Positions 7,362-55,763 of a DNA stretch of 64,000 bases are shown piece by piece. Every line of letters begins with the position of its first letter. Position 1 is the first letter of the stretch. The translations under genes and the position numbers were made by a program. Below the pieces are notes generated by a model that saw nothing but the letters and a program-made list of their open reading frames with translations, was not told the origin of the DNA and ran no database searches. Origin of the DNA: an uncultured Lachnospiraceae bacterium (lineage in GTDB: Bacteria; Bacillota; Clostridia; Lachnospirales; Lachnospiraceae); contig CAKRPJ010000001.1 of assembly GCA_934376955.1 (NCBI GenBank), forward strand, positions 21,396 through 85,395. Direction: 5' to 3'.

Positions 7362-7420
7362 TTTTGCGCTTATTATTATTTATTATTTATATTTTATATT
7401 TATATTATATAAGGTATATT
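7362..7420. promoter_or_regulatory. AT-rich tract next to the tandem iterons (putative DNA-unwinding element)
   Basis: TTATTATTATTTATTATTTATATTTTATATTTATATTATATAAGG, essentially all A/T. Confidence 0.4.
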
Positions 7421-7525
7421 GCGAGTTTCTTTTACACGAGCTGCGAGGTTCTTTTATTCCTCATACGAGTTTCTTTTATACTGGCTACGAGTTTCTTTTA
7501 TTCCTGCTACGAGTTTCTTTTACGC
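7421..7525. repeat. five tandem 21-22 bp direct repeats (C)TACGAGTTTCTTTTA(T/C), the reverse complement of the dispersed iteron core
   Basis: Read directly from the sequence. Period is about 21 bp, two helical turns. Confidence 0.7.
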
Positions 7526-8215
7526 AAAATCCTGCTTTTCGCTGTCAAACAACCTCGTAATTGCTGTCAAAAAATCTCGCAGTTCGCATCAAATAATCTC
7601 GTAATTCACGTTAAATTTTTTGTTTCCTGCGCTTTTTGTCAAACAAACTCGTAGTTTTAAGCCAAACGGATAGGGTAGGGGAGTGGTCCCGCCCCTGATT
7701 TTTTTTACGCCTTTTCAAATCAAAAAACTCGTAGTTCATTCCGCTGCATCAACCATCCATATCTGGCCGTCTGAACCATATTTTTTCAATCTTTTGGTCA
7801 AACAAACTCGTAATTCTGGCTATGGGTGGTCATAAATCAACTTCAAGTCCTGTCATGCGCCGCCCGTCCATACCGTCCTGGCTTTATTACAATCGGTATT
7901 TTTTGCGCTTTTTCACCGTAAAAGAAACTCGTAGTTCAGCTCTAAATGCTCTGCCCATCAATCGGCAGCAGGGGAGAGGGTCTGATTTTTTTTGCAGTTT
8001 TCGGCGTAAAACAAACTCGTAATAGCTACAGCAACCAGCGCCGGCCGAATTCAATCTTGTCGCATGTATCATCTATCAATTCATAAACCGTTCATATTGG
8101 CCGTTTTCCCGGTTTCACACCCTATAAGCCTATATACCAAAAAGTATACACCTCACATGCCGGCAATTCAACAAAAATCAATCCCGTCAACCAAATAATA
8201 ACCGCGTACACATTC

Positions 8216-8560
8216 TTGGGTATAACTTTGTGCAACCTGCCTTTGGAAATAACCAGAAAAGTCGTAAACGTAGATGGAACCGATTTGTCAAAAATTCGTT
8301 CGCGCATAAGCGGAACAGTAAATAAAAACTCTAGAACCGGGATAAACGGTGTTGCGCTTACCAAAAAAGGCACCTACAAAGCATATATTAACTTTAAGCA
8401 TAAACGCATTCACCTTGGCTTTTTCACCAATCTAAAAGACGCAGCCGCTGCCAGAAAAGAAGCCGAAGAAATTCTTTACAATAAATTTTTAGACGATAAC
8501 GCCGGTTGGGAACAGCGCCTGGCAGACGCAATGGCCGAATACAAAAAGAACAAGAAATAA
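8216..8560 (+). CDS. stand-alone AP2-domain DNA-binding protein (start uncertain, TTG in table)
   Basis: GINGVALTKKGTYKAYINFKHKRIHLGFFTNLKDAAAARKEAE resembles the AP2/integrase-type DNA-binding domain common in phage HNH nucleases. Confidence 0.55.
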   Translation: MGITLCNLPLEITRKVVNVDGTDLSKIRSRISGTVNKNSRTGINGVALTKKGTYKAYINFKHKRIHLGFFTNLKDAAAARKEAEEILYNKFLDDNAGWEQRLADAMAEYKKNKK

Positions 8561-8703: not shown

Positions 8704-9210
8704 ATGGCTTTAACTACAGAACAAGTTTTTGCAATGGGTATTCTCTATAATCAACTAACCACAGCAGTTTATGGTGACGATGGTCCAAAAGCAAACAGCT
8801 TCCAAAACGCCACCATGTATCCGTTTTTGGAAATTACCAAGCTGATTCTTCGTGCCCGTTCTGAACGTCGTATCTCTCCAGAGCTGGATCGCCTGATTGC
8901 CCAAACATATTCAACCCTTACCGAAGAAGACGTTCAGAGCGGGTTTAGCAGCATTCTTCCCGTTGAACTGCAAGGTGCCTTTGCTCTTGGTTATTATCAT
9001 GGCCAGGTCGAAAAGTATTCGGATATCAAGCCCATCGGTCTCAAAGCCATGCGTGCCCGCGCTAATATGACTGTCCAACAGGCAGCAGATAAACTCGGTA
9101 TATCCGCCCGCCAATACCAACGTATTGAATCTGGCGAAAGCAAACCTACTGTTCAGGCAGCACAAACTCTTGCCTCGCTGTTTCAATGCTCTGTCAATGA
9201 TTTATTTTAA
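8704..9210 (+). CDS. XRE-family helix-turn-helix protein (HTH at the C-terminus, novel N-terminal domain)
   Basis: C-terminus TVQQAADKLGISARQYQRIESGES is an HTH_XRE. RBS AGGAGG 9 nt before the ATG at 8704. Confidence 0.7.
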   Translation: MALTTEQVFAMGILYNQLTTAVYGDDGPKANSFQNATMYPFLEITKLILRARSERRISPELDRLIAQTYSTLTEEDVQSGFSSILPVELQGAFALGYYHGQVEKYSDIKPIGLKAMRARANMTVQQAADKLGISARQYQRIESGESKPTVQAAQTLASLFQCSVNDLF

Positions 9211-9221
9211 GAGGTAGTTTC

Positions 9222-9812
9222 ATGCTTCGTCGCTGCACTCGCTGCGGAAGTTCATTTGAAGGGCAAAAAGAACAGCGCCTATGCCCCTCATGTCGTGAAC
9301 AGGCCGCTCATAAACCACGCATGATATCTCATGTTTGTAAGTCGTGTGGTGCTACTTTTACCGGTGGTCCTCGTGCATCTTTCTGCCCAGAATGTAAGGC
9401 GGAACGTGATAAGCAGGCTGTAAAAAAATGTCGGAACCTTGCTAAAAACAAGACCACTCGCCAAATTGGATCTACCGATATCTGTCAGCGGTGTGGCAAG
9501 CCTTATATTGTAAAAGGTGGCCTTCAAAAATATTGTCCAGAATGCGCCCCGATCTCCTTAAAAGAAAAAACCGAGCCGTTAAAACGTGCCTGGGCTGCCA
9601 ATTACCGTGAACAAAACCCAGACCACAAAAAGAACATGCAGAAAAACGGAACAATTTGTGTTGTCTGCGGAAAAACTTTTGCTGCAGTAGATCGTAGTAA
9701 TGCTTGTTCTCCTGAATGTTTAGCAATTCTTAAAAAACAACAGCAATACCATAAGGACATAAAACGTGGGCGTTATAAAAAAATATCAAACACAAAAGGA
9801 GAACCATCATGA
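9222..9812 (+). CDS. protein with four tandem CxxC...CxxC zinc-ribbon units
   Basis: Four units of C-x2-C-G-x(10-13)-C-(P/S)-E-C. RBS GAGG. Confidence 0.6.
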   Translation: MLRRCTRCGSSFEGQKEQRLCPSCREQAAHKPRMISHVCKSCGATFTGGPRASFCPECKAERDKQAVKKCRNLAKNKTTRQIGSTDICQRCGKPYIVKGGLQKYCPECAPISLKEKTEPLKRAWAANYREQNPDHKKNMQKNGTICVVCGKTFAAVDRSNACSPECLAILKKQQQYHKDIKRGRYKKISNTKGEPS

Positions 9813-10237
9813 TAACTGAAATTATTGTAGGGGTTCTTGCCTGTACCCGTAGAACCTCGGAACATGGCCCCGTCACAACAACCTATTTTACCTTTGTGTC
9901 AAATGATCCGTATCAGGCTCACCGTCTTCCGGCTGGCTGGGTTCTTCAAGGTCAAAAACCATCCGGTGTCCCCTGTAAAAAACTCGTCACCATCGAACTG
10001 CCAGATTATATTCATGATGCCAATAGCGATTTTGGCACTTACTATATTTCTGAATATTCCACCAAAGACGGCAACGCAAACAGGGTTTTCTTTTCCTGTG
10101 ATGTTATCCCCGTTCTGGACGGCTTTGAACCCGCAATCAACTCCGCCATTCAAACCATCAAGATCTCCACACCAACCCCATCCGGCAAGCGCGAAGATCT
10201 TCCTGCCAAAGTTCTTTCTGTTTCTGAACTGTATTGA
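9809..10237 (+). CDS. hypothetical protein (142 aa), start overlaps the previous stop (ATGA)
   Basis: Translational coupling. No recognisable motif. Confidence 0.5.
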   Translation: MITEIIVGVLACTRRTSEHGPVTTTYFTFVSNDPYQAHRLPAGWVLQGQKPSGVPCKKLVTIELPDYIHDANSDFGTYYISEYSTKDGNANRVFFSCDVIPVLDGFEPAINSAIQTIKISTPTPSGKREDLPAKVLSVSELY

Positions 10238-12579: not shown

Positions 12580-13530
12580 TTATCTTGTTCTCTTCCACAT
12601 ATAAACCACCAGATAGGGCGGCATGTTGTTGTGGGCTGCCCCGGAACCGCCGGAGGCGACTGTTACGGTTTTGGATTCCCAGTTCGGAATACCCCAGCCA
12701 CTTGATTGCGTTTGGACATACGCATCCGCAGAGCTTCCGGTTTTGGAGCGTATTACGTTGCTTCCGTTGGCCACAGACAGCGAATAATTCGGTAGCTCGC
12801 TTTGTGTAAGCTTATGGGTAAATTCACCCCCAGTACCACCTGCGGGATAACTACTGGAAGCACCAAGCAAAAAGCGTTCAGAAATTCTTTCCCAGGTACC
12901 GCCAAACAAAGTTGCTGGGCTTGTGCTGCTTACGCTCATGTAAATGCTGCCAATCGGCCAGGCTGCAAGTTTTGCTTCCGCAATGGCCGCCTTCACCGCC
13001 GCCGGTGTTGCCGCAATACCACCATTGGTCGAACTCGTTGAACTGGTCGAATCACTCAATTTCACACCGCCCAAAGTCGAAGCATTACCTGTCGGCAGTG
13101 TATATTTCGTATCTGTTGTCGGCGGTGTATACCCCAAAGCATTTGTCACATTCGCCTTTGTCAAACTAATCGTGCCGGAATTCTCCGTAATGTTACTCCC
13201 GATTTTTACACCACCCAAAGTCCAAGCACTCGCGGTTGGCAGTGTGTACTTGGTATCAGTCGTAGGTGGCGTATAACCCAGTGCATTTGTCACGTTAGTC
13301 TTACTAAGGCTGATCGTACCGCTGCTCACCGTAATATTGCTGCCAATCTTTACACCACCCAGGGTTGAACCTGTCGCCGCAGGCAGCGTATAAGTCGATC
13401 CACTACTTGCAGGTGTCATGTAAATCTGGTTTGCATTCAAAGTGCCTGCATTCTTGGCACTGTCATATTGGCTCTGTGTTAGGTAGTTAATTACTAAACT
13501 ATCTAGCTTTGTATTTGTCGCCATAATCAT
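12580..13530 (-). CDS. tail fibre protein with three tandem ~45-aa repeats and a C-terminal tail-collar-like domain
   Basis: Three copies of GGVKIGSNIT..SGTISL..NVTNALGYTPPTTDTKYTLP. C-terminus WPIGSIYMS...LFGGTWE resembles the collar motif. Confidence 0.7.
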   Translation of the reverse strand: MIMATNTKLDSLVINYLTQSQYDSAKNAGTLNANQIYMTPASSGSTYTLPAATGSTLGGVKIGSNITVSSGTISLSKTNVTNALGYTPPTTDTKYTLPTASAWTLGGVKIGSNITENSGTISLTKANVTNALGYTPPTTDTKYTLPTGNASTLGGVKLSDSTSSTSSTNGGIAATPAAVKAAIAEAKLAAWPIGSIYMSVSSTSPATLFGGTWERISERFLLGASSSYPAGGTGGEFTHKLTQSELPNYSLSVANGSNVIRSKTGSSADAYVQTQSSGWGIPNWESKTVTVASGGSGAAHNNMPPYLVVYMWKRTR

Positions 13531-14928: not shown

Positions 14929-16410
14929 TCACCACCTGCTAATTGTCACACTTGTTGCGCCCACACTAGCTGCCGTAATGCTGATAGATTTCGCACTGCT
15001 GCCATCCCATGCACCCTGGCTTGTCCCGTTCAGGTTAATCGTTAAAGCTGCATTCACCTTGTTGGCGCTCGTTGCGGCACCGCCTGCGCTGCTGGACCCA
15101 GCATAATTGTGGGTATGGCCGCTTGCCGCTTTACCATCAATCAAACCTTTCAATACCTTGCCCTGGTTCGCGCTCAAGCTATCTGTAGTCGAAGTCGAAG
15201 TCAAGTTGTCCTGGATTCCTCGCCATGTATTTGCCGGCACAGCCCAGGTTCCGTCTCCACGCAAGTAATATGTCTGTTGGCCTTTGGCCGGTGCCGGAAC
15301 AAGTCCTGTACTACCCGCCACATCAGCGGTCGCTTTCGCAAACACACCATAAGTTGTATTCGTATCCGGGGGTACAGCCCAGGTTCCGTCACTGCGCAGG
15401 TAACGGTTCGCATTGCCCGCCACTGGCGCAATCACCAAGCCGGTACTGCCCGCTTCGCTTGTGGTCGCTCCCTTAAAGGTGCCATAAGTCGTGTTGGTAT
15501 CCTGGGTCGTAATCGTCCCGGTCGTGTTGTCGTCCTTTGTATAAGTAATGGTTGTACCGCTTACACTTAAATTTTTAATTACCCCATGCGTATGGCTGCT
15601 CGGTGTAAAGGTGCTCGGCTTGCCTGTCACGCTATCCCAAGTATGGGTATGTCCCATAGCCGCCTTGCCATCCACCAGGGTTTTCAGCGCTTTGCCCTGC
15701 GCTGCGCTCAAACTGTCGGTCGTACTGTCGCTGGTCAAATTGTTTTGGATGCCGCGCCAAGTGTCGGTATCTGTCAGCTTGTCCTGCACCCATCCGCCCC
15801 AAGTCCCGTTTGCACAATGGCGGCGGTAAGCAGCACTGTCGCCGTAAATAATCTGGGTATAATAATTTCCACTTGCCCGGTGAATCACAATCAGGCCAAA
15901 ATGGTCTACGTTACTTGGTTTATTTGTCACGCTGTTGCCGCCGCCAGAACTGTAAAATCCTGGTGTCACCACATCGTTCAAGTTCTCATTTGTCAACACA
16001 ATCATGGCGGCCTTGCTCTCATTCAGGATCTTACCCTGGTTTGCCGCAAGGCTCTGGTCGGTCGCGCTGCTGGTTAAGTTGTTCACAACCGGCCGCCATG
16101 TGTTTGTGTCCTGTTCGGGTGGGGTGTATCCCAGTGCATTCTTTACATTGTCCGCCGTCACACTAAGCACGCCGCTGTTGTTTGTAATGTTCGCTCCGGT
16201 TTTCACGCCGCCCAACACACTGCTTGTCGCCGTGGGCAGGCTATATTTGTTCGCCCCCTCGGCAATCCCATCCAATTTTTTCTTATCGGCTGCGCTCATA
16301 AAGCCAGCCGCGCTCTGTGTAGCTCCCCCGTGCCCGTGGCTAATGGGCGCAAAAATGGTTTTCAGCTTGCCAAAAAAGTAGCTCAACCCCGCGTTACTCA
16401 AATATCCCAC
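14929..16410 (-). CDS. tail fibre paralog (GTG start) carrying NVKNALGYTPP and AGSTGLV(I/P)AP..G...YLR.DGTWA.P repeats
   Basis: Shares repeat modules with the neighbouring fibre genes. Confidence 0.6.
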   Translation of the reverse strand: MGYLSNAGLSYFFGKLKTIFAPISHGHGGATQSAAGFMSAADKKKLDGIAEGANKYSLPTATSSVLGGVKTGANITNNSGVLSVTADNVKNALGYTPPEQDTNTWRPVVNNLTSSATDQSLAANQGKILNESKAAMIVLTNENLNDVVTPGFYSSGGGNSVTNKPSNVDHFGLIVIHRASGNYYTQIIYGDSAAYRRHCANGTWGGWVQDKLTDTDTWRGIQNNLTSDSTTDSLSAAQGKALKTLVDGKAAMGHTHTWDSVTGKPSTFTPSSHTHGVIKNLSVSGTTITYTKDDNTTGTITTQDTNTTYGTFKGATTSEAGSTGLVIAPVAGNANRYLRSDGTWAVPPDTNTTYGVFAKATADVAGSTGLVPAPAKGQQTYYLRGDGTWAVPANTWRGIQDNLTSTSTTDSLSANQGKVLKGLIDGKAASGHTHNYAGSSSAGGAATSANKVNAALTINLNGTSQGAWDGSSAKSISITAASVGATSVTISRW

Positions 16411-46452: not shown

Positions 46453-47340
46453 CTATGCGGCTCTTAGCCTTTCCCAGCAATTTGGGTATTTAATTATTTG
46501 ACACCTGCATCCTACACAACTATTCCCCTTGTGTAAACGGGCATACAATTTACCACTGGTGCCTTTATTTTTAATAAGTGACGTTACAAGCCCTGCACTT
46601 ACACCACTTATTGCAACTGGAATTAGTCCAATATTATCAACGAGTTTTACAACTGCATCGGCAGCATTAGTAATCCATGTTGCCAGTTCGATAAACTTTT
46701 TAACTATATCGCTATCCAGCACATCCTTAGAAAGCTTCTCAAATGCTGCTGTGAACTGCGAAATCTTACCATTGATACTATTAAGGTAAGTCTCATTTTC
46801 TTTTGTGGCGCTGCCGGCAGATTCAGCAGCAGTCTTGGCGGCATCCTGTGCGTCCTTCCAGTTGTCCAGCATACCGGAAACAACGTTAGCGCGGTTCTTG
46901 CCAGCAACCTGTTCCAACAGGGATGCTTTGTCGACGTCGTTCATTTCTTTCCAGACGTTGGCAATGCCTTCCATGATTTCATAGGTGGACTTAAAATCCC
47001 CGCTCTTGGTTAAGATATCAAATCCGCCCTTACCGTCAACATTGGTCAATGCCTTGATCTGGTCACGCAGTTTAGAGGTGCTTACTGCTACATCATCAGT
47101 GCTTTCGCCCATCTGTTCAAGATCGGTCTTTGCGCCACGGATGCGCAGTGACAATACTTTCAGCGCGTTACCTACCGACTCCGGGTCCTGCGCAACATCA
47201 TTGGCAGCCACAATCATACCAATACTCTGATCCAACGTGTTTCCTGCGGTATGCAAGGCGGATGCCGAGCGCTGTAGCGCACTGCCAACTCCAGCCGAGG
47301 AGATGGCATAATTATTCAAGCTGTTACTTTCACGGATCAA
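46453..47340 (-). CDS. tape measure protein, downstream segment (continues the TP901-type core region; last ~35 aa of the ORF look non-native)
   Basis: NNYAISSAGVGSALQRSASALHTAGNTLDQSIGMIVAANDVAQDPESVGNALKVLSLRIRG continues the core begun in 47561..52711, but in another frame. Confidence 0.7.
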   Translation of the reverse strand: MIRESNSLNNYAISSAGVGSALQRSASALHTAGNTLDQSIGMIVAANDVAQDPESVGNALKVLSLRIRGAKTDLEQMGESTDDVAVSTSKLRDQIKALTNVDGKGGFDILTKSGDFKSTYEIMEGIANVWKEMNDVDKASLLEQVAGKNRANVVSGMLDNWKDAQDAAKTAAESAGSATKENETYLNSINGKISQFTAAFEKLSKDVLDSDIVKKFIELATWITNAADAVVKLVDNIGLIPVAISGVSAGLVTSLIKNKGTSGKLYARLHKGNSCVGCRCQIIKYPNCWERLRAA

Positions 47341-47755
47341 CCGTTACTGACCGTAAACAATACGGCGGGTAGTCATTTCTGGCTACCTCTCATGTTTCAA
47401 GTATTAGGTTATAGCATGAGTTCGGACTGTATATTACCGATGTCTTATCGGAATTTACTTCAACATACCTGTTGCCAAGTATATCCTGCAGTCTCTAGGG
47501 ATTTATAGAATTTAACGATTTTATCTTCAACTTGTTCCGCAGTTAAAGTGTATGGCAATCTTAACAACGGAATTTTATTATCTTTTCGTTTGTTAGAGAT
47601 TGTTCCTTTAATAAACTGACCTTTGTTATTTCTTGTACACATAAAAAAATAACCTCCCTATTGCCATATAGGAAGTTATCGTTAAATTCCATATCTTTCC
47701 TCGGTCTTGGGTGCCTCCACCCTTTAACCGATATAGTAAATTTGGGGCAATGTTG
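47341..47755 (-). other. intervening sequence of ~410 nt splitting the tape measure gene (group I intron-like, boundaries approximate)
   Basis: The conserved core is interrupted between ...FNEVGK(Q) and (S)LNNYAISS. The insert contains stop codons and a free-standing small ORF with its own RBS. Confidence 0.5.
47460..47642 (-). CDS. 60-aa ORF inside the intervening sequence; degenerate HNH homing-endonuclease-like N-terminal fragment
   Basis: NNKGQFIKGTISNKRK resembles the GQF.KGH.PWNKG motif of phage HNH endonucleases. RBS GGGAGG. Confidence 0.4.
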   Translation of the reverse strand: MCTRNNKGQFIKGTISNKRKDNKIPLLRLPYTLTAEQVEDKIVKFYKSLETAGYTWQQVC

Positions 47756-50700
47756 TTTACCCACCTCATTAAATTTATCAACAATGCTGGTTACATCTTT
47801 CGCTTCAACGCCAAACGCTTTCATTGTGGAAATGATAGATTCACTAGCGTCATTGACACTAGAAATTCCATCCCCCACATGTTGGTACAGAACGGCCGCG
47901 TCAGCCAATTCTTTGGAATCTTTCAAATTGTAACCTAACCGTGCAAAATCAGCACTGGCCGTTACAATATCGCTGATAGAAGCGCCCAGATTCTTTGCTC
48001 GCGTACCGGCATCATCCAAAAACGCATCGTATGTATTATCGGTTTCGTTTGTAACCTTTTTCAGCTCGGTCATGGCAGAATCAATATTCACCACGTTCTG
48101 GTAAATCTGTCGCAACCCTTGCTGAACCATGTTAATTACCTGGCTGGCAAACTGACTCTTGATATTTGTCTCAAACAGCTTTTTGAACTTCATTGCCAGT
48201 GTGTCAGTTTCAAGCCCAGCATCCTGTACTGCCTTTTTCAGTTCAGCAAATTCCTTGGATGCTTTGCTTGCATATTCCTGGCCGTTTTGCTGTGTGATTT
48301 TCCCGGATTCTAGCAATTTCTGGTAGCGTTCAATATATTCGAGATACCGTGCATATATCGCAGGATCAGTTGTAATTTTAGAGTTATTAGACAAATACCT
48401 CTGTGCTGTATACAAAGAATTAGAAACACTCTTAATATAAGTGTTCACATCACGCTGAGATTTAAGGTTGCCATTAAACTTATCAGCTTCCGCCTTTGTT
48501 TCGCCAATCTTTGTTTTAACAGCGTTCAACGCATCAGAGACACTTTCAATCGGTGTTTTGGCATTTTCAAACTGCTTGGCCATTGCAGCAATAAAAGTTG
48601 GAACGTCAGCCGCAGATTTAACCTTTTCGGCTTCTTCAACCATCTTTTTAAGAGCACTTTCAGTTTGCTGGTAAATACCATTATCCTTAAATCCCTTATT
48701 GCCAGCGCTCCGCTGTAAAGCCGTTAGCATCGTCTGGTGGTTTGCCAAAAAGTCCTTAATCTGCTCAAACTGGCGCTCATTACTTCTAACGCTATTATCA
48801 GCCATGGTGTCATTGGCTGTATTTACTGCTGTTGTAAAATTTTTAGCAGCAGATGCGCAATTATTCATAGCGATTTTAAGCTTGTCAAAGTTTTCGGAAC
48901 TCCAGTCTTTTTCATACTCTTTTCTGGCTTTTTCTAAAGCTGTTTGAGTCTCTTTGAATTCTTCTCGCAAACGAGTAATTTTTGCGCTTTCTGTACCATT
49001 TACGTCTAGCTTCGAAGCCTTAGAGATGCTGGCGGCAGGATCAATTTTAGAAAGCTCTTGTAACTGAGCTGTCTGGGTTTTAATGTCTGCAATATCTTTT
49101 TCTGCTGCCCTTATTGCAGTTTGAAGAACGTCTGCATTCCTATCCCCGCCTTCTTTATCAAGGCGAGTAATAATCTCTAAAACGTATGAAAGATCGGCAG
49201 AAAGTTTTTTTACTGAATTATCATAATTTTCAGTCGTTTTATTGTCGAATTGAAATTTAGCAGCCTCATCGTATGCCTGAGTAAACTCGGCCCATTTGGC
49301 CACATTAGTCAGCAAGGCATTTGTACTTTCCGATTCTTCATTGGCTACTTGCGCCGCCGCTTTGGCCGCTTCCTGGGTTTCTTTATTAACCTGCTTTACA
49401 CCTTCCGCCATCTCGGTGGTCCGGCTAACAATATCTGCCCATGTTGTTGCGGCTTTTTCGCTGCCATTATAAAAGGCAGTAATGTCATCATTCAGTTCAG
49501 CAAATTGCTTGGTATAACTATCTTTTACAGCGCCTTCTGGCATCTGCTTAATCATTGCACCAAGATTACCGGTCTTCATTGCCAGCGATGTTACATGGCT
49601 ATTATCAGGGCTGGTTTGCAGCATCGCGTCCTTGCGGATCTTAGTGGAGATTTTCTTAATCTGCTCATCAACAGAGTTGTTAATCAGCTCCGCAAACTGA
49701 TCCATGTTTACCTCGTCGGTCATGGTTTTCAGTTTAGCAAGATCCGTCATGCTGTCCGTGATGCTCTTGGCTGCATTCGTTAGACTATTAAATACGGCAG
49801 TAATTTCCGCAAAGCCATTCACAATGTCAGTCTTGGCCTTTTTAGCATCTGTCGTACTCTTCTGTGCCTTGGCAAGTTTTGCATCAAGGCCGCTGGTATC
49901 TTTCAGCGTAGTCAGTGCCTGACTCAATGCTTCATCCAGTGTTGCCTTAAATCGCTGGGTGGCTTCTGCTACTGCTGCATCAACTTTCGGCGTCACCGTC
50001 TTGCCGTTCTCATCTTTCGGCAGTTTAACGCTGTTGATGGCACTCAGCTCACCAATGGACTTCTTATAAAAATCAACGATGTTGTTGATAAAGTTCCCAA
50101 GCTTGCGATAAGTTGTCGCATTCTTGCTGCCATCAATCTCTGCCACTTTGTCCAGGTTTTCCTGTAACCCTGCTGCAATGTTAGCATAACTGGTAAACAG
50201 CCGCTTCAATCGGTTCCCGGCGTTCACAAGGGTCTTTACACTAGCATCAATTGTTCCGCTGGCCTGTGCAGCTTCGCTCAGTGCGGTGGTAACCCGTCCA
50301 ACCTTTTCGCCGGCATTATTCAGGGTCGCACCAACAGTTTCCATCTGGGCAGAAAACTCCTGTGCAGCACTCTGCTGTTGTTTTGCCGCATCGGCCGTTG
50401 TAGTCGCTGTACGCTCGCCAGTGGTTTTATAAGCCAGAATAATAGCGTTTACTTCATCAGATGCCGCAATAATCTGCGCTGCTTTTTCAGCAAACCCATT
50501 TGTCGCAGCGCCAATCTTGGCAAACTTGGTAAACACCGTGTGGATTTGAGTGCTCGCCTCATTCGCTTTTGCAACACTGGCAGCCACATCATCCATGCTG
50601 TCAGTTTCAGTGACGGCTTTCTTCCCGCGCTTGGCTTTGGTTACGGTTCCGTTTATAAGGCCAGCGTTAGTCTTTATGTCAGCTAGGGATTCACTATACT

Positions 50701-52711
50701 GCTTAAAAGTATTGTTCAGGGCAGTTGCAGCCTCAATCATGGGGCGGGTCGCTTCTTTTGCTCCGTCTGCACTGGTAGCCGCTGTTTTCAATTCGGTCGT
50801 AATGGTGTTAATTGAATTACTGGCATTGGTGATAGCATTTTTAACCGTGTCCGCCGCTTTTTCTGCGTTCAATACCAACTGCTGCAGCTTTACAGCTTCA
50901 TCAACCTCGGTGGTTTCGGTTTTCTGTGTTTTCTTGCCACGCTTCCCCTTAGTCGGTTTATCCTCCTTGGTCAGGCTGGTTAAAAAGGCAGTCGAGATTG
51001 CTAAGGTTTTATTGATGCTGTCAATGGCTGCATTAAATTCAGCAGCTTTTGTTTTGGTCGTTTCCAGCTTCGGGTTGCTCTCTACCACAGAATTAACAAA
51101 CGCAGAAACTTTATCCAAAACATCTTTTACCTTGCTGGGGTTAATCGCAGAAAGTGTTTCAAGCAAAGTTTTCGCATCATCAGCCTTGTTTTTACCATCT
51201 GTAATACCGGTAGCCTCAGATTTTAATTTTGAAATTTCTTCTGCAATCTGCTCTTTTTGCTTAACCAGGGTCTGAAGAGCATCAATGCTTTTTTTAGTTT
51301 CTGTGTAAATGGCCTGCTCAGCCTCTAATGTACCATTTTTTGCAGCAGTGACATCCTTTTGCTTTTGAGCCATCGTATCAAGCTGAGAAATAATAGTTTC
51401 AGTAGTGCTTTTTATACGGGCTGTTATTTCAGTATCATCCAAATCCGGTTCAGACATGGTTTTTAACTCTGTCTGCGCATCACTTATTCCGGCAACTTTA
51501 TTTTGAAGTTCTTTTTTTCGTTGTTCAATTCTTTCTTCAACAGCCTGGATTGTATTGTCTATACCAGAAACCATTTGATTTTTTACACTATCAGGTAAAA
51601 TACCAATGGTCGAAGCAATCTCAACCCAATACTCTTGATAATCTTTTGCAGCAGTTTCAACCTCTTCTTCTGTTGATGTAGAACTTAATACTTTTTGACG
51701 GGCTTCATTTAACTTTTTAAACAAGCTTTTAAGAGTCGCAGTATAATTCAAGGCGGCAGAATTTAATTCTTCCGATGCCTTCATATCTATAGCCTTAATT
51801 ACTGTTTTGAACTGTTTCGCTACCTTGTTAGAGTCTTCTTCAGTCTCCGCCAACTGATCCTTTACATAATCAGTAAAACTTTCATACCCTACATCAGGAT
51901 CATCCCACTTTACGATATCTTCAAAGACATTGAAAACTTGTTTGATTTTATCAGTTTCGTTTCCAACGACATTTTTAATCTCTACTGCGCCTTTCTCAAA
52001 GCTATCACTCATCAAAGAAAAATAAGTGTCTATATCCTTACTGATATCATTAGAATTTTCCTGTAATCCCTGTTTTAATGTAGGATTTTTAAGAGTGCTT
52101 AAAAGTTTTTGCTGAAAAGAAGAAATTTCAGAAGAAACATCGTTTCCATTTTTTGCTTTTTCGTCGTCATTAGAATTTGTAGTTTCTGCATTTATTTCGG
52201 CAACAAGTGTTTTGATGTCAGAAATATTTTCTTTTATTTTTTGGTACTGCTTTATTTTTGTATTAAGAGCCGAAATCTCAGTATCTTTATTTATACTGTT
52301 TTTAAGTTCTCGTTCTTGTGTTGCAGTAAGCTTGATTCCCTCATTTAGCTGCTTTTGTGCGACAATCTGCTCTTGAGTGGCACTTGCGAGTTCTTTTCGT
52401 TTCTGTACACTACCAGTAAGTAGATTTATATTAGAAGTAAGCGCCGCCTGTTCCCGCTTTTGTGCCTGTTCAATAACTGCGGCTGCCTGCTGGGCGCTTT
52501 TAGCGTAGTCGTCAATAGCCTTCATGGTATTGGCCATTGCCTTTTCCATCGCCCCGGATATAGTCTGACTGATGCTCTTTAGCTGTGTCTTTAGGTTTTT
52601 ATCGCCAATCTGTACATTAAACTTTTTGTCTTTTGCAATCTCATTCAGTTTCCCCTGCACACCACCGCCGTCAGGTTCCACTTTTACCTTAATACTTAAA
52701 TCTTCCGCCAT
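47561..52711 (-). CDS. tape measure protein, upstream segment (1716-aa ORF; native sequence ends near 47756, the remainder is read-through into the insert)
   Basis: Very long coiled-coil. C-terminal ...TELKKVTNETDNTYDAFLDDAGTRAKNLGASISDIVTASADFARLGYNLKDSKELADAAVLYQHVGDGISSVNDASESIISTMKAFGVEAKDVTSIVDKFNEVG is a TP901-type TMP core. RBS AAGGGGG. Confidence 0.75.
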   Translation of the reverse strand: MAEDLSIKVKVEPDGGGVQGKLNEIAKDKKFNVQIGDKNLKTQLKSISQTISGAMEKAMANTMKAIDDYAKSAQQAAAVIEQAQKREQAALTSNINLLTGSVQKRKELASATQEQIVAQKQLNEGIKLTATQERELKNSINKDTEISALNTKIKQYQKIKENISDIKTLVAEINAETTNSNDDEKAKNGNDVSSEISSFQQKLLSTLKNPTLKQGLQENSNDISKDIDTYFSLMSDSFEKGAVEIKNVVGNETDKIKQVFNVFEDIVKWDDPDVGYESFTDYVKDQLAETEEDSNKVAKQFKTVIKAIDMKASEELNSAALNYTATLKSLFKKLNEARQKVLSSTSTEEEVETAAKDYQEYWVEIASTIGILPDSVKNQMVSGIDNTIQAVEERIEQRKKELQNKVAGISDAQTELKTMSEPDLDDTEITARIKSTTETIISQLDTMAQKQKDVTAAKNGTLEAEQAIYTETKKSIDALQTLVKQKEQIAEEISKLKSEATGITDGKNKADDAKTLLETLSAINPSKVKDVLDKVSAFVNSVVESNPKLETTKTKAAEFNAAIDSINKTLAISTAFLTSLTKEDKPTKGKRGKKTQKTETTEVDEAVKLQQLVLNAEKAADTVKNAITNASNSINTITTELKTAATSADGAKEATRPMIEAATALNNTFKQYSESLADIKTNAGLINGTVTKAKRGKKAVTETDSMDDVAASVAKANEASTQIHTVFTKFAKIGAATNGFAEKAAQIIAASDEVNAIILAYKTTGERTATTTADAAKQQQSAAQEFSAQMETVGATLNNAGEKVGRVTTALSEAAQASGTIDASVKTLVNAGNRLKRLFTSYANIAAGLQENLDKVAEIDGSKNATTYRKLGNFINNIVDFYKKSIGELSAINSVKLPKDENGKTVTPKVDAAVAEATQRFKATLDEALSQALTTLKDTSGLDAKLAKAQKSTTDAKKAKTDIVNGFAEITAVFNSLTNAAKSITDSMTDLAKLKTMTDEVNMDQFAELINNSVDEQIKKISTKIRKDAMLQTSPDNSHVTSLAMKTGNLGAMIKQMPEGAVKDSYTKQFAELNDDITAFYNGSEKAATTWADIVSRTTEMAEGVKQVNKETQEAAKAAAQVANEESESTNALLTNVAKWAEFTQAYDEAAKFQFDNKTTENYDNSVKKLSADLSYVLEIITRLDKEGGDRNADVLQTAIRAAEKDIADIKTQTAQLQELSKIDPAASISKASKLDVNGTESAKITRLREEFKETQTALEKARKEYEKDWSSENFDKLKIAMNNCASAAKNFTTAVNTANDTMADNSVRSNERQFEQIKDFLANHQTMLTALQRSAGNKGFKDNGIYQQTESALKKMVEEAEKVKSAADVPTFIAAMAKQFENAKTPIESVSDALNAVKTKIGETKAEADKFNGNLKSQRDVNTYIKSVSNSLYTAQRYLSNNSKITTDPAIYARYLEYIERYQKLLESGKITQQNGQEYASKASKEFAELKKAVQDAGLETDTLAMKFKKLFETNIKSQFASQVINMVQQGLRQIYQNVVNIDSAMTELKKVTNETDNTYDAFLDDAGTRAKNLGASISDIVTASADFARLGYNLKDSKELADAAVLYQHVGDGISSVNDASESIISTMKAFGVEAKDVTSIVDKFNEVGKQHCPKFTISVKGWRHPRPRKDMEFNDNFLYGNREVIFLCVQEITKVSLLKEQSLTNEKIIKFRC

Positions 52712-52801: not shown

Positions 52802-53281
52802 TTAGTTATCAGGGAACTGCTCTTTTATGGCTTTCACAATCTCTCCATGTACGGCGCTGTTCCCATCTGCGATTTCTTTTGCCGTGTTTGCCACAAACGG
52901 GCGCGGGTGCAAATAGGCCGCATCAGGTGGCGAACCCCAAATGTTTTTCACATCGCCCTTCTCCACCATCTCAGCAAGCGGTGTATTGGTGCCGGTTTTG
53001 TATTGCCCACCAACGGCTGATTCATTCGGCACACCAATATCCTTTACCGTAAGCACATGTTCTCTCACGCTGCTCACCACACTGCTGTCGGCTTCCAATG
53101 CCCCTTCGCCCTGGCCGCGGCGCTTATATACTTTCGGCTGGTATACATCCAGTACATCTTCCTGGATATGCTTCTTCAAACAATTCTCCACAGCCGTTTT
53201 CGCCCCGCCATTCAGTGCCAGGTTAATTCTCCGCTGCAGTTCCAGTTCCAGCCCTTTCTGTGTGCTTACCGTCTTGGCCAT
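52802..53281 (-). CDS. hypothetical protein immediately upstream of the TMP (tail assembly chaperone position)
   Basis: Gene order. RBS AAGGAGAG. No motif recognised. Confidence 0.5.
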   Translation of the reverse strand: MAKTVSTQKGLELELQRRINLALNGGAKTAVENCLKKHIQEDVLDVYQPKVYKRRGQGEGALEADSSVVSSVREHVLTVKDIGVPNESAVGGQYKTGTNTPLAEMVEKGDVKNIWGSPPDAAYLHPRPFVANTAKEIADGNSAVHGEIVKAIKEQFPDN

Positions 53282-53779
53282 TTAACTCTCCTTGCCGTTC
53301 ACAACCTCAATCTTCACGGGCGGCTTCTTTGCGGGCTGCTCTCCTTCACGCACTTTCTTTACCAGATCAGCCAAAAATTCCTGGTCTCCCAACTGGCTCA
53401 AATTCCCTGCAATCTCTGCAAAGGCGTCTGCAATCCGGTCAAGCGGGTCCGGGTGGTTGATCGCATCAAATACCTTCATGTATTTTTCTTTCCGGTCTTT
53501 CATTTCGGCTTCACATGCCTCATAAAGTCCCGCTGTAATCACCGCAATGTCCGGGTCTTCCACAATCTCAATGCCCTGTCGGCTGTAAACAAAGTCACAC
53601 ATCTCATCTGTGTCCATCTTGTCCAGCTCCGCTTCCGGGGCAAAAAAGGTAATCACCGCAATGCGCCAAGCATAATCAAACAGCGCGTAATACTGCTTGC
53701 CGTCCTTCTCGCACATGTCGCAAACAAAATCCACAAACCGGATTCTGTCGCCTACACGGATGTTCTTCTTAATTTCCAT
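53282..53779 (-). CDS. hypothetical acidic protein (tail assembly chaperone position; start MEIKK)
   Basis: The upstream part of the table ORF is a terminator hairpin. ATG at 53779. Confidence 0.5.
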   Translation of the reverse strand: MEIKKNIRVGDRIRFVDFVCDMCEKDGKQYYALFDYAWRIAVITFFAPEAELDKMDTDEMCDFVYSRQGIEIVEDPDIAVITAGLYEACEAEMKDRKEKYMKVFDAINHPDPLDRIADAFAEIAGNLSQLGDQEFLADLVKKVREGEQPAKKPPVKIEVVNGKES

Positions 53780-53790
53780 AAAAAAATACC

Positions 53791-53825
53791 TCACAAAATA
53801 AAAAGCCCCGCCCTTTTCAGGCGGA
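53791..53825 (-). terminator. hairpin CCGCC-TGAAAAG-GGCGG + T-tract on the - strand, downstream of the IS element
   Basis: 5-bp GC stem followed by GGCTTTTTATTTTG. Confidence 0.4.
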
Positions 53826-53849
53826 GCCGTGTTCATGTTCTATTCGGGT

Positions 53850-54114
53850 ACCATACCCTAATTTTGTCATGCTCAACAAGCTTTTCTGTTGTTTCCTGGC
53901 ATAATCACAATTTTACAGCGTGTCGTAGTGAACCTCCCCACCTAAGCCTTGCGGTTATAGATGAGGCTTCTCCGTGGATTGTAACCCCACGGTAAGTCTC
54001 TGCGTTACCCGAAGGTAGAGATACGGCCCAAACTTAGCTCACAACGCCTGACGGCATTGGCCACCACATAAGGGTTAGTCTCCCGCAAAGTTGTCACAAC
54101 ACAGTACATCTACA
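53850..54114 (-). ncRNA. candidate omega-RNA (right-end element RNA) downstream of tnpB
   Basis: Structured non-coding segment with several hairpins, for example ACGGTAAGTCTCTGCGTTACCCGAAGGTAGAGATACGG, directly 3' of tnpB as in characterised TnpB systems. Confidence 0.3.
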
Positions 54115-55608
54115 TCAGGCAGTTACTTCGGGTTGAATCTCTTTTGGAGTGTTCAAAAAGTCATGCAGCTGTCTGAGAGAATGTAAAGTGCATTGGGTTC
54201 TGCGCTCAATGTCAGGAACTTTGGCCTTACATTGAGACCATGCCTTTTTTGACATGGGTTTTGTTACCTCGCGGATAAAATAGCGTGCGCCGATATTGTA
54301 GCACGCATTCAAATCCGCATTGTATTGTTTGCTGCTTGCAAAAGTAGCAAGGGAATGGTTATCTGGTGCGCGTTTTACTTTGCCGCTGCCGTCATACGCA
54401 AGTTTGCTGGTTCCCCAAGCGCAGATGTGCGAAATGCGGATACCACAGCGGTGAGCTTTATGCTCTGCAATGTGCTGGATACCATTTTTACGCCACATCT
54501 GGATTTTCTGCTTCTTGGACGATGCTTTCTTGCCTTTGAAGTCTAAATGTTCAAAGACAATTACATCGGCAGAATAGAGGACCGCGAATTCTACAACCGC
54601 GGCAGCAATCTTTTTGGATAATTCATCATTAACGCGCTTTGCATAGGCCCAAAAGTTATGTGCTTCACGGGACCCATGTAGTCTTTGGAACTTCTTGATG
54701 CGGTTAAGCACATGATACAGATGGTCTTTGTCACTTGGGAAGTTGATAAAACTCCTGGCAAGGATAGTTCCATCAGCAGTCATGATGCTGCATACCGCAT
54801 CGGTATTGAGACCTAAATCGACGGCACAGACGCGCTGCTTATCGATAGGGGTATCACTCAGTTTAACGTTTTCATCGAACGCAAAACGAAGGCTGTATTT
54901 GCCAAAATGCTTTTCGAGTATAGGGGCTGACGCACAAGCGTGCATCCAGTATTTGCGCAAGTAAGCAATATCTGTCTTACGCAGCGTGACGGTTGCCCAT
55001 ACCCAGTCGTTTTTATAGAAAACCTTCAAGCGGACAGTATAGTGATTGCTCAAAGCAGTCAGCTCATTTTGGGAGTTCTGCAGTTCAACAGCTTTGCGCT
55101 TTGCTTTCTCGATTTTCTTTTCTTCTGCCGTAAGTTCGTCCTTAGGTTTAGGATTTTTTATGACTTTCACTTTTTCGGGTGCGCCGTCCACGAGGAACAT
55201 ATCATCGCGGAAGAATATAGGGAGAGCCTTTCTGTCCACTTGAAGGGTAGGCTGTTTATCCTTTTTGTCGGACACTTCCCAATTTGCCAAGTTGCTGCGA
55301 TAACTGCTCACCGCACCAATAGCGACCGTAATGGTTGCACGACGCAGATACGACGGATACTTATAGAACAACTTGTCGAAATCAGGATACTTGGCTTCAT
55401 GGTTTTTGGTGCTATGAACCAGTTTATCAATATAGCGCTGTTGCTCAAGATTACCGGTATCGATGCGTTTAACAGCATTCCAGTTTTCATTGACAACGCC
55501 AATCAGATAGGCGAGCGCCTTGCGATAAATACAAACAGTTTCATTGAGATTTACACTACAATTAACGATTCTTACCTGATAGCTAGATGTAATATTCAAA
55601 GCACTCAC
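54115..55608 (-). CDS. tnpB: TnpB-like RuvC-fold transposon-associated nuclease (497 aa)
   Basis: RuvC-I VCAVDLGLN, RuvC-II VIVFEHLD, RuvC-III YNADLNACYNIG. The zinc-finger segment between II and III has only one Cys. Confidence 0.8.
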   Translation of the reverse strand: MSALNITSSYQVRIVNCSVNLNETVCIYRKALAYLIGVVNENWNAVKRIDTGNLEQQRYIDKLVHSTKNHEAKYPDFDKLFYKYPSYLRRATITVAIGAVSSYRSNLANWEVSDKKDKQPTLQVDRKALPIFFRDDMFLVDGAPEKVKVIKNPKPKDELTAEEKKIEKAKRKAVELQNSQNELTALSNHYTVRLKVFYKNDWVWATVTLRKTDIAYLRKYWMHACASAPILEKHFGKYSLRFAFDENVKLSDTPIDKQRVCAVDLGLNTDAVCSIMTADGTILARSFINFPSDKDHLYHVLNRIKKFQRLHGSREAHNFWAYAKRVNDELSKKIAAAVVEFAVLYSADVIVFEHLDFKGKKASSKKQKIQMWRKNGIQHIAEHKAHRCGIRISHICAWGTSKLAYDGSGKVKRAPDNHSLATFASSKQYNADLNACYNIGARYFIREVTKPMSKKAWSQCKAKVPDIERRTQCTLHSLRQLHDFLNTPKEIQPEVTA

Positions 55609-55763
55609 CTCCCTTACGGTTCACTATAATTCTATAATATCCAGTTCGCACAACCTGGCGACACCGTTATCAGAACGGAAAACAATAATTTCTGATTTCT
55701 ACCCTTAAACACGAGCTAACCCCGCCTAAATTTTACAGCTATAGACGTTGCGTGCGCTCTCCA

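Follow-up and report, generated by a model that had tools for sequence, protein, structure and literature searches.

The presence in a phage genome of an insertion sequence that encodes TnpB and lacks a transposase raises two questions: whether the element is still mobile and whether an RNA-guided nuclease has a role for the phage. We addressed them in a stretch of 64,000 nucleotides (the window) by comparing the element with its relatives in phages and bacteria. Our analysis indicates that the element probably spreads by RNA-guided homing between co-infecting phages, independently of TnpA; this mechanism is already known, and the evidence for it from a natural phage population appears to be new.

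Alignments together with empty and occupied alleles in about 50 related phages delimit the whole mobile element, a TnpB-only insertion sequence of the IS200/IS605 type, at positions 53928..55772 on the minus strand (1,845 bp). The sequence-only reading had placed a TnpB-only element at 53840-55760; the discrete insertion was upheld with these other bounds, as closely related phages show clean empty sites and not the same sequence as native phage DNA. The DNA common to the window and to unrelated contigs is the element only (89.6% identity to L001-3 and 83% to L004-13), and its GC skew, around 0 within the element and -0.2 to -0.3 outside, points to a foreign origin. The window copy starts with TACGAATAATGG, directly after TTGAT, and ends with GAGGTTCAC. 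The TAM, 5'-TTGAT (55773..55777, minus strand), abuts the left end on its 5' side and is kept in empty sites. Across six independent phage insertion sites this position is occupied by TTGAT in five and by TTGAC in one. Furthermore, comparison of L004 with empty alleles of a second phage family (L196, L203, L219 and L225) gave a junction consisting of TTGAT, the element and GGGATGAGG, with zero target-site duplication. Insertion 3' of a fixed motif without target-site duplication was also found at the window site, where the left end has three additional nucleotides (TAC) with respect to other copies and the junction is ambiguous by these 3 nt.

The interrupted gene (55764..56174, minus strand) codes for a DUF1064, Holliday-junction-resolvase-like protein (Pfam PF06356, E 1.7e-27; phrog_190), and carries the TAM, within its last codons, and the target at its 3' end. 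The insertion replaces the last three codons and changes the C-terminus from WIDYDTL in empty alleles to WIDYE in occupied ones, each followed by the stop codon. The insertion is found at the 3' end of this gene, just upstream of a native terminator and not in the middle of an uninterrupted operon, which does not agree with the initial view of an insertion inside a structural operon; the location then given, between major-tail-side and tail chaperone genes, depends on names of neighbour genes that are based on position alone. The terminator (53804..53828, minus strand), an intrinsic one detected by scan as a 10-pair stem followed by a T-run, follows the right end at a distance of about 100 nt. 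It had been noticed earlier as following the omega-RNA region, and it does, as a phage-native feature that is also found in B-type empty alleles. The primary transcript of tnpB and the omega-RNA likely stops at this terminator. An ORF called at 53282-53836, downstream of the element, begins inside it and has its true start at an ATG at 53779. In addition, a consensus scan gave a putative promoter-like site, TCGCCA-16-TATTAT (55634..55661, minus strand), upstream of tnpB within the element, in a region conserved among element copies.

The longest tnpB ORF (54115..55608, minus strand) is intact and would encode 497 aa from a GTG at 55608, as originally proposed. The product is most likely one of 494 aa, judging from a conserved TTG start (55599-55597) located behind a GGGAGG ribosome-binding site (coding sequence 54115..55599, minus strand); this is also the length given by gene callers to all close homologues. 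Sequence comparisons support the assignment of the gene to the TnpB family with an intact RuvC triad, in line with what had been claimed at first sight. D264, E353 and D432 (497-aa numbering; codons at 54817-54819, 54550-54552 and 54313-54315, minus strand) are invariant in 28 of 28 aligned family members and align with the vDlG, vE.L and naD.nAs.Ni motifs (RuvC I, II and III) of the solved TnpB 9nzp and Cas12f 9nzq and 9nzo, the RuvC-III motif of the family being of the NADxN type. The NCBIfam guided_TnpB model matched residues 30-442 (E=1.2e-15) under its curated cut-off; scores compared with curated cut-offs were 17.6 versus 26.3 bits for PF07282, 57.7 versus 100 for NF040570 and 24.8 versus 32 for TIGR01766. 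Precomputed annotation assigns the family, for which more than 4,273 homologues were found, to PF27142 ('Aq_aa04'). An AF2 model (pLDDT 80.5) was compared with the PDB using Foldseek and the top 50 matches were all Cas12, TnpB or Fanzor structures, among them 8j3r (E 9e-14) and ISDra2 TnpB 8h1j (E 1.9e-10); the predicted structure contains the WED-REC-RuvC-TNB fold.

The zinc finger is thought to be structural in TnpB and Cas12f. No CxxC...CxxC was found between RuvC-II and RuvC-III in any of the 28 aligned members, and its place is taken in the family by a conserved DGSG...ATF.SGKxYN. The single nearby Cys that had been interpreted as the remnant of a degenerate finger does exist in the window copy (C396), and the finger is absent from the whole PF27142 family; zinc finger loss has been reported for some large TnpB branches (PMC10691335). 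The dN/dS values of tnpB with respect to the L001 and L004 phage copies (0.06-0.08) reflect strong purifying selection. Elsewhere in the window, a 493-aa ORF (14929-16410) was considered as a second TnpB copy and discarded, since tblastn showed none; junction searches likewise did not reveal this element lineage at other TTGAT sites in these phages. A 295-aa ORF (46453-47340) considered as an AcrVA2-like gene is a tape-measure fragment.

A conserved structured RNA occupies the 187 nt after the tnpB stop codon, its 3' limit coinciding with the right end. The predicted omega-RNA scaffold is bounded by the stop codon and the right end (53928..54116, minus strand), although it may begin further inside the ORF. 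RNAalifold produced 29 pairs in this 3' region, 25 of them with compensatory changes; paired cells reached 91.8% compared to 32-43% in slid controls, and none of 500 shuffles was as good. When a covariance model was made exclusively from 29 bacterial relatives, its single match in the window was at 53928-54116 (26.9 bits, E 2.4e-6). The single-sequence fold of the region is unremarkable (z = -1.29), and only comparative analysis was informative. With nhmmer almost nothing matched between the 3' region of the window and those of the bacterial relatives, and homology of the 3' regions can be detected only through the conserved GAGGTTCAC end and the structure. Rfam searches returned nothing in the region at E<=1 and nothing in the whole window at gathering scores, so that the omega-RNA of this TnpB family is missing from Rfam. 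About 270 nt of non-coding DNA had been attributed to the omega-RNA region; the conserved RNA structure was supported, with 187 nt inside the element and the rest being native phage intergenic DNA. Beyond GAGGTTCAC the sequence is unrelated in every element copy. All these data suggest that an omega-RNA with a flank-derived guide is encoded by the tnpB 3' end and the right end.

The candidate guide-encoding flank, TACGACACGCTGTAAA (53912..53927, minus strand), comprises the first 16 nt past the right end; formally phage DNA, it passes on along with the element. Empty alleles have the same 16 nt directly after TTGAT. In two unrelated phage families the empty allele is exactly the TAM followed by the guide. 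All 14 occupied alleles have an identical 16-nt guide, compared to 8 haplotypes among the empty ones. Within the window the guide sequence has one match only, and the TAM-target junction was found in 14 IMG/VR contigs, all belonging to the phage family of the window.

The zinc-finger-less TnpB clade (Pfam PF27142) is common in gut Clostridia as full tnpA+tnpB insertion sequences; of 80 bacterial relatives, 62 have a Y1 tnpA directly upstream and are multicopy. Searches by tblastn with a TnpA of the same family as query found none in the 64-kb window, as had been noted before, nor in the examined phage loci, and the window copy is non-autonomous because TnpA is absent. Its left end (55720..55772, minus strand) contains a subterminal hairpin (55720-55750) that has decayed in the window lineage (CAACG..AGCTGTAAAATT..CGGGG versus the consensus CCCCGTCTATAGCCGTAAGGCTTAGGCGGGG). 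This hairpin is broken in the window copy and in 13 of 13 occupied relatives. Five other insertion contexts preserve it, L227 with a compensatory variant. The right-end hairpin coincides with the 3'-terminal stem-loop of the omega-RNA plus GAGGTTCAC (53928-53967). Both end hairpins are present and alike (AGCCGTAAGGCTTAGG.GGGG) in five other copies, whereas in the window lineage the left one is disrupted and the right one weakened. First arrival at the window site, and at no fewer than five other phage sites, must have relied on a Y1 TnpA supplied in trans; since the left-end hairpin has decayed in the window lineage afterwards, homing is probably its sole remaining way of moving.

To follow the element in related phages we used about 50 near-identical genomes in IMG/VR; the related contigs come mostly from one IMG/VR compendium record, so that the presence of occupied and empty phages in one community is an assumption. 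The window site is polymorphic, with 13 occupied alleles, about 34 empty ones (TTGAT followed by TACGACACGCTGTAAA) and 2 internal-deletion remnants. Internal-deletion and LE/RE-fusion remnants are represented by L081, L106 and L201, as predicted by the life cycle of homing elements. Element copies differ by 4-7 mismatches per 1,843 bp, compared to 12-24 per 400 bp in the adjacent gene, and pi was 0.0025 in the element versus 0.023-0.038 in the flanks, a roughly 10-15-fold difference. Occupied and empty alleles have equal flank diversity to within 12-50 bp of the junction, and Fst (from pi and dxy) rises only weakly toward it (approximately 0.05, 0.14 and 0.23 at -500..-201, -200..-51 and -50..-1, respectively). 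Furthermore, the element is found on many flank haplotypes that also occur with empty alleles, and the occupied-specific variants end at target positions 17-18, which fall in the cleavage zone of 15-21 bp measured for ISDra2 TnpB (PMC8612924). Presence or absence at one site, an element younger than its flanks and short co-conversion were found again in the second phage family.

About half of the empty alleles carry mismatches in the target, all of them synonymous or located after the stop codon. Natural variants of target and TAM include TAT at position 3, CGT>TGT at position 10, CTA at position 12, AAC/AAAC length variants and a TGGAT TAM (L109). The 16 nt of the target vary no more densely than the neighbouring 300 bp, so that selection for resistant targets is not apparent. 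Regarding GenBank phages, megablast of 53000-57000 gave no match and tblastn of TnpB found only two unannotated faecal phage records (36-38% identity), so no annotated reference phage is available.

The homing that we propose would proceed as follows. A single transcript of the element would encode TnpB and supply, at its 3' end, an omega-RNA whose scaffold ends in GAGGTTCAC and whose guide would be transcribed from the first ~16 nt of the flanking phage DNA (TACGACACGCTGTAAA). Upon co-infection with a relative carrying the empty allele (TTGAT plus TACGACACGCTGTAAA), the TnpB-RNA complex would cut the empty allele at the end of the target farther from the TAM, and repair of the break from the occupied genome would copy in the element together with the guide segment, in an inter-genome 'non-restorative' homing. 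Occupied alleles would be immune to cutting, as their TAM and target are kept apart by the element. We infer that the window TnpB carries out RNA-guided cleavage and that cleavage, and not ordinary recombination, drives the spread.

A rival explanation for the spread is that a single insertion, with TnpA in trans, was spread passively by frequent phage recombination while TnpB and the omega-RNA were kept for 'restorative' repair or for nothing relevant. The flanking genes are a mosaic of shared haplotypes, indicating that recombination is frequent anyway, and the locus is a hotspot for other insertions (L092 and L093); a young insertion combined with very high recombination could mimic the diversity pattern without a nuclease. 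We nevertheless consider this explanation unlikely, as a block of reduced diversity would be expected around a young allele, whereas the flanks of occupied alleles are as diverse as those of empty ones up to the immediate vicinity of the junction, and the strictly linked flank is only the 16-18 nt guide segment, ending at the predicted cut site. Restorative homing, moreover, requires excision by TnpA, which is absent here while the left-end hairpin is broken, and strong purifying selection on TnpB requires a function. TnpB could also serve chiefly to eliminate co-infecting relatives devoid of the element, conversion being a by-product, in parallel with the intron-endonuclease competition described for other phages. 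The molecular steps would be the same as in homing, close competitors alone carry the target, in one of their conserved genes, and the protein is under strong selection; interference of this kind is documented for a phage homing endonuclease (cited in PMC13565253). Killing alone, however, would not place a near-identical element on many flank haplotypes, and conversion evidently occurs, so as a primary role interference seems very unlikely, even if it is compatible with homing.

Repeated and independent TnpA insertions into the same site of different phages would require at least 13 events at one site and none elsewhere in the window, which is implausible because TnpA needs just a 5-nt motif, very frequent in a genome of ~100 kb. 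Additionally, the left-end hairpin needed for TnpA recognition has decayed in every copy of the window lineage. We regard this possibility as extremely improbable, despite the fact that the phage clade has moved to at least six different sites, that the annotation of the related phage locus L011 has a Y1_Tnp gene at one edge and that the host Clostridia hold many tnpA+tnpB copies. Finally, the missing zinc finger and the scores under the curated TnpB HMM cut-offs could suggest that the gene is an inactive relic, or else that it encodes an RNA-guided regulator of the TldR type without nuclease activity; phages do encode such dead relatives of TnpB (PMC10705468). This is hardly credible for a protein whose D/E/D triad is invariant across the family and aligned with catalytic motifs, and whose gene shows such low dN/dS. 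The gene still lies between IS ends, and its guide matches the empty site of the element itself and no promoter; a TldR-like repressor was discarded in view of the intact triad and this guide. A Cas12f or type V CRISPR system was also discarded, as there is no repeat array within ~46 kb of the gene.

RNA-guided homing being the reading that we favor, the sequence variation at this locus fits TnpB acting as a homing endonuclease between viral genomes, whereas TnpB homing between replicons has so far been proposed on theory and plasmid assays only. The locus offers a complete testable system, with a TAM (TTGAT), a guide, a natural target, mismatched and TAM-mutant alleles and deletion derivatives. 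If homing is confirmed, RNA-guided nucleases would shape gene flow and competition among gut phages, and the candidate genome editors would gain a clade of compact (494 aa) nucleases that lack the zinc finger and have a defined TAM. We hold with about even confidence a bolder view, in which the element would be a natural RNA-guided 'gene drive' of wild gut phages that has lost its transposase and left-end hairpin and persists purely by TnpB/omega-RNA homing, the inherited unit being the element plus the 16-18-nt guide flank; a TnpB clade without zinc finger would then provide the first natural case of OMEGA homing that is independent of TnpA ('non-restorative').

This proposal is close to the 'transposon non-restorative homing' put forward in a 2026 OMEGA review (PMC13565253) as a theoretical category together with a laboratory plasmid assay. 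In both cases a second replicon would be cut by TnpB at its orthologous empty site and would acquire a copy of the transposon through repair, independently of TnpA, with the difference that support here comes from natural sequence variation in two gut phage families; full-text literature searches found no description of such homing in phages. A counterpart of the components is ISDra2 TnpB/reRNA of Deinococcus radiodurans (IS200/IS605; Karvelis et al. 2021, PMC8612924), which shares 5'-TTGAT as TAM at the left end, a guide of ~16 nt flanking the right end, a scaffold derived from the tnpB 3' end and right end, a D-E-D RuvC triad and an empty ('donor-joint'-like) site as target. The predicted fold of the window TnpB matches 8h1j (Foldseek E 1.9e-10, TM 0.59 target-normalised), although identity in the structural alignment is ~14%. 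The window protein also differs in having NADxN in RuvC-III ('derived' clade) instead of DRDxN and in lacking the C4 zinc finger; the phage clade has an extra helical insertion of ~50 aa, the window copy has no tnpA, and the presumed repair template is another phage genome and not a sister chromosome. IS1341-type or solo-TnpB elements likewise carry only TnpB between IS200/IS605-like ends and can be mobilised in trans, and PATE/MITE derivatives are short non-coding forms keeping the ends, as in L081, L106 and L201; here, in contrast, the left-end hairpin has decayed and spread is site-specific (one locus, many backgrounds) and not dispersed. Cas12f (type V-F) gave the best structural and profile matches to the window TnpB (AsCas12f 8j3r/8dzj, E ~1e-13; OsCas12f 9nzq) and shares the NADxN RuvC-III motif, but it retains the zinc finger that the window TnpB lacks, and the window gene has no nearby CRISPR array and sits between IS ends with a fixed flank-derived guide. 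The population pattern resembles that of free-standing phage homing endonuclease genes (T4 Seg/Mob type, intronless homing): related phages either have or lack the gene at a single position between genes or at a gene end, the gene has diverged much less than the DNA around it, co-conversion tracts are short, an occupied allele is self-immune and degenerate remnants occur. Recognition would here depend on an RNA guide of ~16 nt plus a 5-nt motif instead of on a protein, and, as happens in intron homing, the insertion itself would distinguish self from non-self by coming between TAM and target.

Comparison with related phages showed that the element (53928-55772, minus strand; 1,845 bp) is a discrete insertion and not native phage DNA. 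Using two flanking proteins we retrieved about 50 IMG/VR contigs (38-233 kb) that share 92-99% DNA identity with the window in their flanking genes; the site is occupied in 13 and empty in about 34, one contig (L081) has an internal deletion that keeps ~55 nt of the left end and the last 150 nt, and another (L106) retains a left-end/right-end fusion of ~70 nt. Empty alleles read ...GGTGGGTGGATTGAT joined directly to TACGACACGCTGTAAAC..., and occupied alleles read ...GGATTGAT, then the element (TACGAATAATGG...GAGGTTCAC), then TACGACACGCTGTAAAA...; past the right end, occupied alleles continue with the very 16 nt that stand after TTGAT when the site is empty. These junctions therefore place the element directly 3' of TTGAT (the TAM), with the 16 nt as guide. 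The sequence-only reading had proposed this comparison for delimiting the ends and had asked for the TAM and guide to be identified from the right end; ends, TAM and guide were all recovered, except that TAC at both junctions makes the cut point ambiguous by 3 nt; the right end was set at ...TTCAC on account of its family-wide conservation. The element is inserted at the 3' end of a gene for a DUF1064 / Holliday-junction-resolvase-like protein, which ends in ...WIDYDTL-stop when the site is empty and in ...WIDYE-stop when it is occupied. The junction of TAM and 16-nt target was found in 14 contigs and that of right end and guide in 15 (all IMG/VR), all from the window's phage family, and the guide 16-mer occurs once in the window.

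A second, unrelated phage family presents the same series of alleles. Its occupied allele reads ...CTATTGAT, then the element (GAACTATG...GAGGTTCAC), then GGGATGAGGTAAATATC, and four empties read ...CTATTGAT joined to GGGATGAGGTAAATATC, an unambiguous junction; in most remaining empties CTGAT precedes a diverged target, and a left-end/right-end fusion remnant is left in one contig. In this family, an 84%-identical element lies at another site (locus L212, 5215-7050), downstream of a 235-aa gene and likewise with TTGAT before it, and isolated fragments of ~35 nt resembling the right-end hairpin occur elsewhere (L197, L204, L225; minus strand), suggesting solo ends and insertions of greater age. 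Phage-like contigs also carry close homologues (78-92% identity) in at least five further, unrelated gene contexts, with which the window shares a single DNA block, 53928 to about 55772 (89.6% and 83% identical), between unalignable flanks. The right end is ...GGCTTAGGTGGGGAGGTTCAC in all copies, followed by unrelated sequence, the left end starts 8-12 nt ahead of the conserved AGAGCGCAC, and the motif before it is TTGAT in five contexts and TTGAC in one. A similar hairpin, AGCCGTAAGGCTTAGG[C/T]GGGG, stands at both ends, as in IS200/IS605 elements.

The 497-aa TnpB with an intact RuvC triad proposed from the sequence was largely upheld. The ORF is uninterrupted (54115-55608, minus strand; 497 aa counted from GTG), but the protein is most likely 494 aa, because the TTG at 55599, preceded by a GGGAGG ribosome-binding site 8-9 nt upstream, is conserved in the alignment with two diverged copies and the upstream GTG is not; 494 aa is also the length of all close homologues. 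Profile matches stayed below the cut-offs (Pfam, Cas12f1-like TNB domain, sub-threshold; NCBIfam guided_TnpB, residues 30-442, E=1.2e-15, under the model cut-off), the precomputed Pfam family of this group being PF27142 'Aq_aa04'. By sequence, the closest solved relative is TnpB 9nzp, followed by Cas12f chains. An AlphaFold2 model built from 28 homologues (pLDDT 80.5) matched exclusively Cas12f, TnpB, other Cas12 and Fanzor proteins among the best 50 Foldseek matches in the PDB (AsCas12f, E about 1e-13; ISDra2 TnpB 8h1j, E 1.9e-10). D264, E353 and D432 are invariant among the 28 members of the family alignment and align with the RuvC-I/II/III motifs of solved proteins. RuvC-III is YNADLNA, of the NADxN type that marks the 'derived' TnpB clade of Altae-Tran et al. 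(PMC10691335). In contrast, the degenerate zinc finger ascribed to this copy was not borne out: CxxC...CxxC between RuvC-II and RuvC-III is absent from every aligned member and its place is taken by a conserved DGSG...ATFxSGKxYN, so the missing finger is a property of the whole family rather than decay of the window copy; such loss is known in some TnpB branches (PMC10691335). In addition, a charged helical segment of ~45-55 aa (roughly residues 140-190) is inserted in the phage-borne clade and absent from the 439-aa bacterial majority. One 616-aa homologue (P0024) has a ~170-aa internal duplication from RuvC-I to the TNB region, which may be an assembly artefact or real.

The hairpin-rich 3' region had been read as a candidate omega-RNA followed by a terminator. 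Its single-sequence fold is not unusual (z = -1.29) and Rfam gave no match there, but comparative evidence supports the RNA. Of 70 bacterial loci, about 40 have GAGGTTCAC 140-190 nt past the stop codon, with different sequence beyond it in every copy. An alignment of 32 regions from stop codon to right end gave a consensus of 29 base pairs in four helices, with 25 pairs changed on both sides; paired cells reached 91.8% (32-43% with partners slid 1-3 columns) and the covariation score 0.446 (at most 0.095 in slid controls), values attained by none of 500 shuffles. Furthermore, a covariance model of 29 bacterial sequences, phage copies excluded, had its sole match in the 64-kb window at 53928-54116 (minus strand; full-length, 26.9 bits, E 2.4e-6), and also matched the corresponding place in other phage copies. 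In ISDra2, the 3' end of tnpB and the right end together supply the scaffold, ~16 nt of flank form the guide and the TAM is TTGAT (PMC8612924), the same layout as here. A promoter within the element is putative, being a consensus match only.

The terminator, by contrast, is phage DNA: it lies at 53804-53828, ~100 nt past the right end, and is present in empty alleles too. Empty alleles have two intergenic types past the DUF1064 stop, each with its own intrinsic terminator right after DUF1064, and therefore the element, placed inside the tail operon by the sequence-only reading, closes a transcription unit ahead of the native terminator instead of interrupting an otherwise continuous operon. 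The C-type intergenic region (loci L067-L112; ~65 nt) and the B-type (L070-L114; ~145 nt) have different terminators, and occupied alleles are all B-type, though many C-type alleles have a perfect TAM and 16-nt target. The longest reading of the next ORF (53282-53836, minus strand) starts at ATG 53836, within the terminator hairpin; the start that is conserved, ATG 53779 (MEIKKNIRV...), gives 165 aa, not 184. The 'major tail' and 'chaperone' labels of the neighbours rest on position only; the 241-aa gene matches a virion structural PHROG, and the two genes upstream of the tape measure had no informative matches.

Relatives carry other variable inserts at this locus, a hotspot of accessory DNA between the structural and tape-measure modules. 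Locus L092 has a ~0.8-kb ORF-bearing insertion within a B-type intergenic region (9060-9980), and in L092 and L093 a further ~1.6 kb separates the structural gene from the 87-aa gene (about 6727-8440). The tape-measure gene itself is seemingly split (37639-52711, minus strand), with at least three ORFs matching consecutive parts of one tape-measure profile (phrog_4211): 47561-52711 (profile positions 556-722, with a junk-like tail), 46453-47340 (722-952) and 37639-41151 (1138-1671), all on the minus strand, separated by a ~220-nt gap (47341-47560) and by ~5.3 kb with plus-strand ORFs (41152-46452). Introns or inserted cassettes are possible; Rfam detected no intron. Elsewhere in the window, non-coding, iteron-like tandem repeats of 13 and 22 nt (3-4.6 copies; 7376-7616) could be a replication origin or regulatory array, and a 144-nt tandem duplication (13060-13392; 2.1 copies, 72-75% matches) lies within ORF 12580-13530 (minus strand).

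Bacterial members of the family are conventional IS605-type elements. Scanning one genome per species gave 528 relatives, mostly in Lachnospiraceae, Oscillospiraceae and Blautia and often multicopy per genome; a 146-aa Y1 (HUH) tnpA lies directly upstream in 62 of 80 sampled loci, and the elements span ~2.06 kb from TTGAA... on the left to GAGGTTCAC on the right. As had been noticed from the sequence, the window element has no TnpA: no homologue was found in the 64 kb, where the element is present in one copy with a GC skew of ~0, against -0.2 to -0.3 in flanking phage genes. Moreover, five other contexts retain an intact left-end hairpin (L227 carrying a compensatory variant), whereas all copies of the window lineage have it broken at six positions; their right-end hairpin, which also serves as the terminal stem of the RNA, shows only weakening. 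The broken hairpin together with the absent TnpA argues against continued peel-and-paste transposition in this lineage. One contig of the second phage family (L011, 9594-9640) has a PF01797 (Y1_Tnp) gene starting ~8 kb downstream of the element, the locus ending after 47 nt, which could be a phage-borne TnpA source in trans. Additionally, the 11-mer GCTGTAAAATT occurs in the decayed left-end hairpin (55731-55741, minus strand) and in the guide and flank past the right end (53909-53919, minus strand), and the differences between the window left end and the family consensus GCCGTAAGGCT are precisely those that create this match; it could be a repair or gene-conversion scar of homing, or chance.

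The comparisons establish what this TnpA-less IS605-family element is and how it is built; cleavage and its part in the spread are inferred. The best-supported reading is that TnpB and its omega-RNA would cut the empty allele of a co-infecting relative, and that recombinational repair would then copy the element into the cut genome. A break at target positions ~17-18, repaired from an occupied genome, would transfer the element and guide segment and little else, and the occupied allele would escape cutting, since its TTGAT and target are kept apart by the element. Most related contigs share one IMG/VR dataset prefix, probably of a compendium, so that co-occurrence of both alleles in one community is an assumption. 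The main rival, in which ordinary phage recombination has moved a young insertion onto many backgrounds, is disfavoured by two features, namely the lack of a low-diversity block around the element and the abrupt end of the tract at the predicted cut site. Between the window copy of the element and those of the 13 occupied relatives, 4-7 of 1,843 positions differ; the adjacent 400 bp of DUF1064 hold 12-24 differences and the next 3 kb 62-81. Nucleotide diversity is 0.0025 within the element; in the flank it is, for occupied and empty alleles respectively, 0.038 and 0.040 (-500..-201), 0.036 and 0.051 (-200..-51) and 0.028 and 0.025 (-50..-1), and 0.023 and 0.024 in the downstream gene. Divergence between occupied and empty alleles is barely above within-group diversity (Fst about 0.05, 0.14 and 0.23 across the same three intervals approaching the junction), and the last 50 bp hold at least four haplotypes among occupied alleles, common to empties, with one polymorphic site just 12 nt from the TAM.

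On the other side, the 16-nt guide is identical in 14 of 14 occupied alleles, against eight haplotypes among empties. Occupied-specific variants, TAAAA[T/C]TG (TAAAC/TAAC in empties), stop at target positions 17-18, and from about position 29 occupied alleles are polymorphic again at sites also variable in B-type empties; this boundary coincides with the staggered cut of ISDra2 TnpB, measured 15-21 bp from the TAM (PMC8612924). Repeated TnpA insertion at one 5-nt motif fits these data poorly. So does a dead relic or TldR-like repressor; dN/dS among phage TnpB copies is 0.06-0.08 at dS 0.5-1.1, which denotes strong purifying selection. Interference competition, in which rival phages would be killed, is compatible with the homing reading, and neither excludes the other.

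The class of mechanism that homing would represent is already known. TnpB is established as an RNA-guided nuclease restoring excised transposons (PMC8612924; PMC10055086), solo TnpBs are known to be mobile (PMC10691335), and a record of TnpB genes in some gut phages exists that stops short of functional analysis (PMC11054128). A full-text literature search, with most subscription journals outside it, returned no paper on TnpA-independent (non-restorative) OMEGA homing in natural phage populations. What appears to be new with respect to these systems is the transposase-independent, phage-to-phage setting, with a natural allele series in two phage families.
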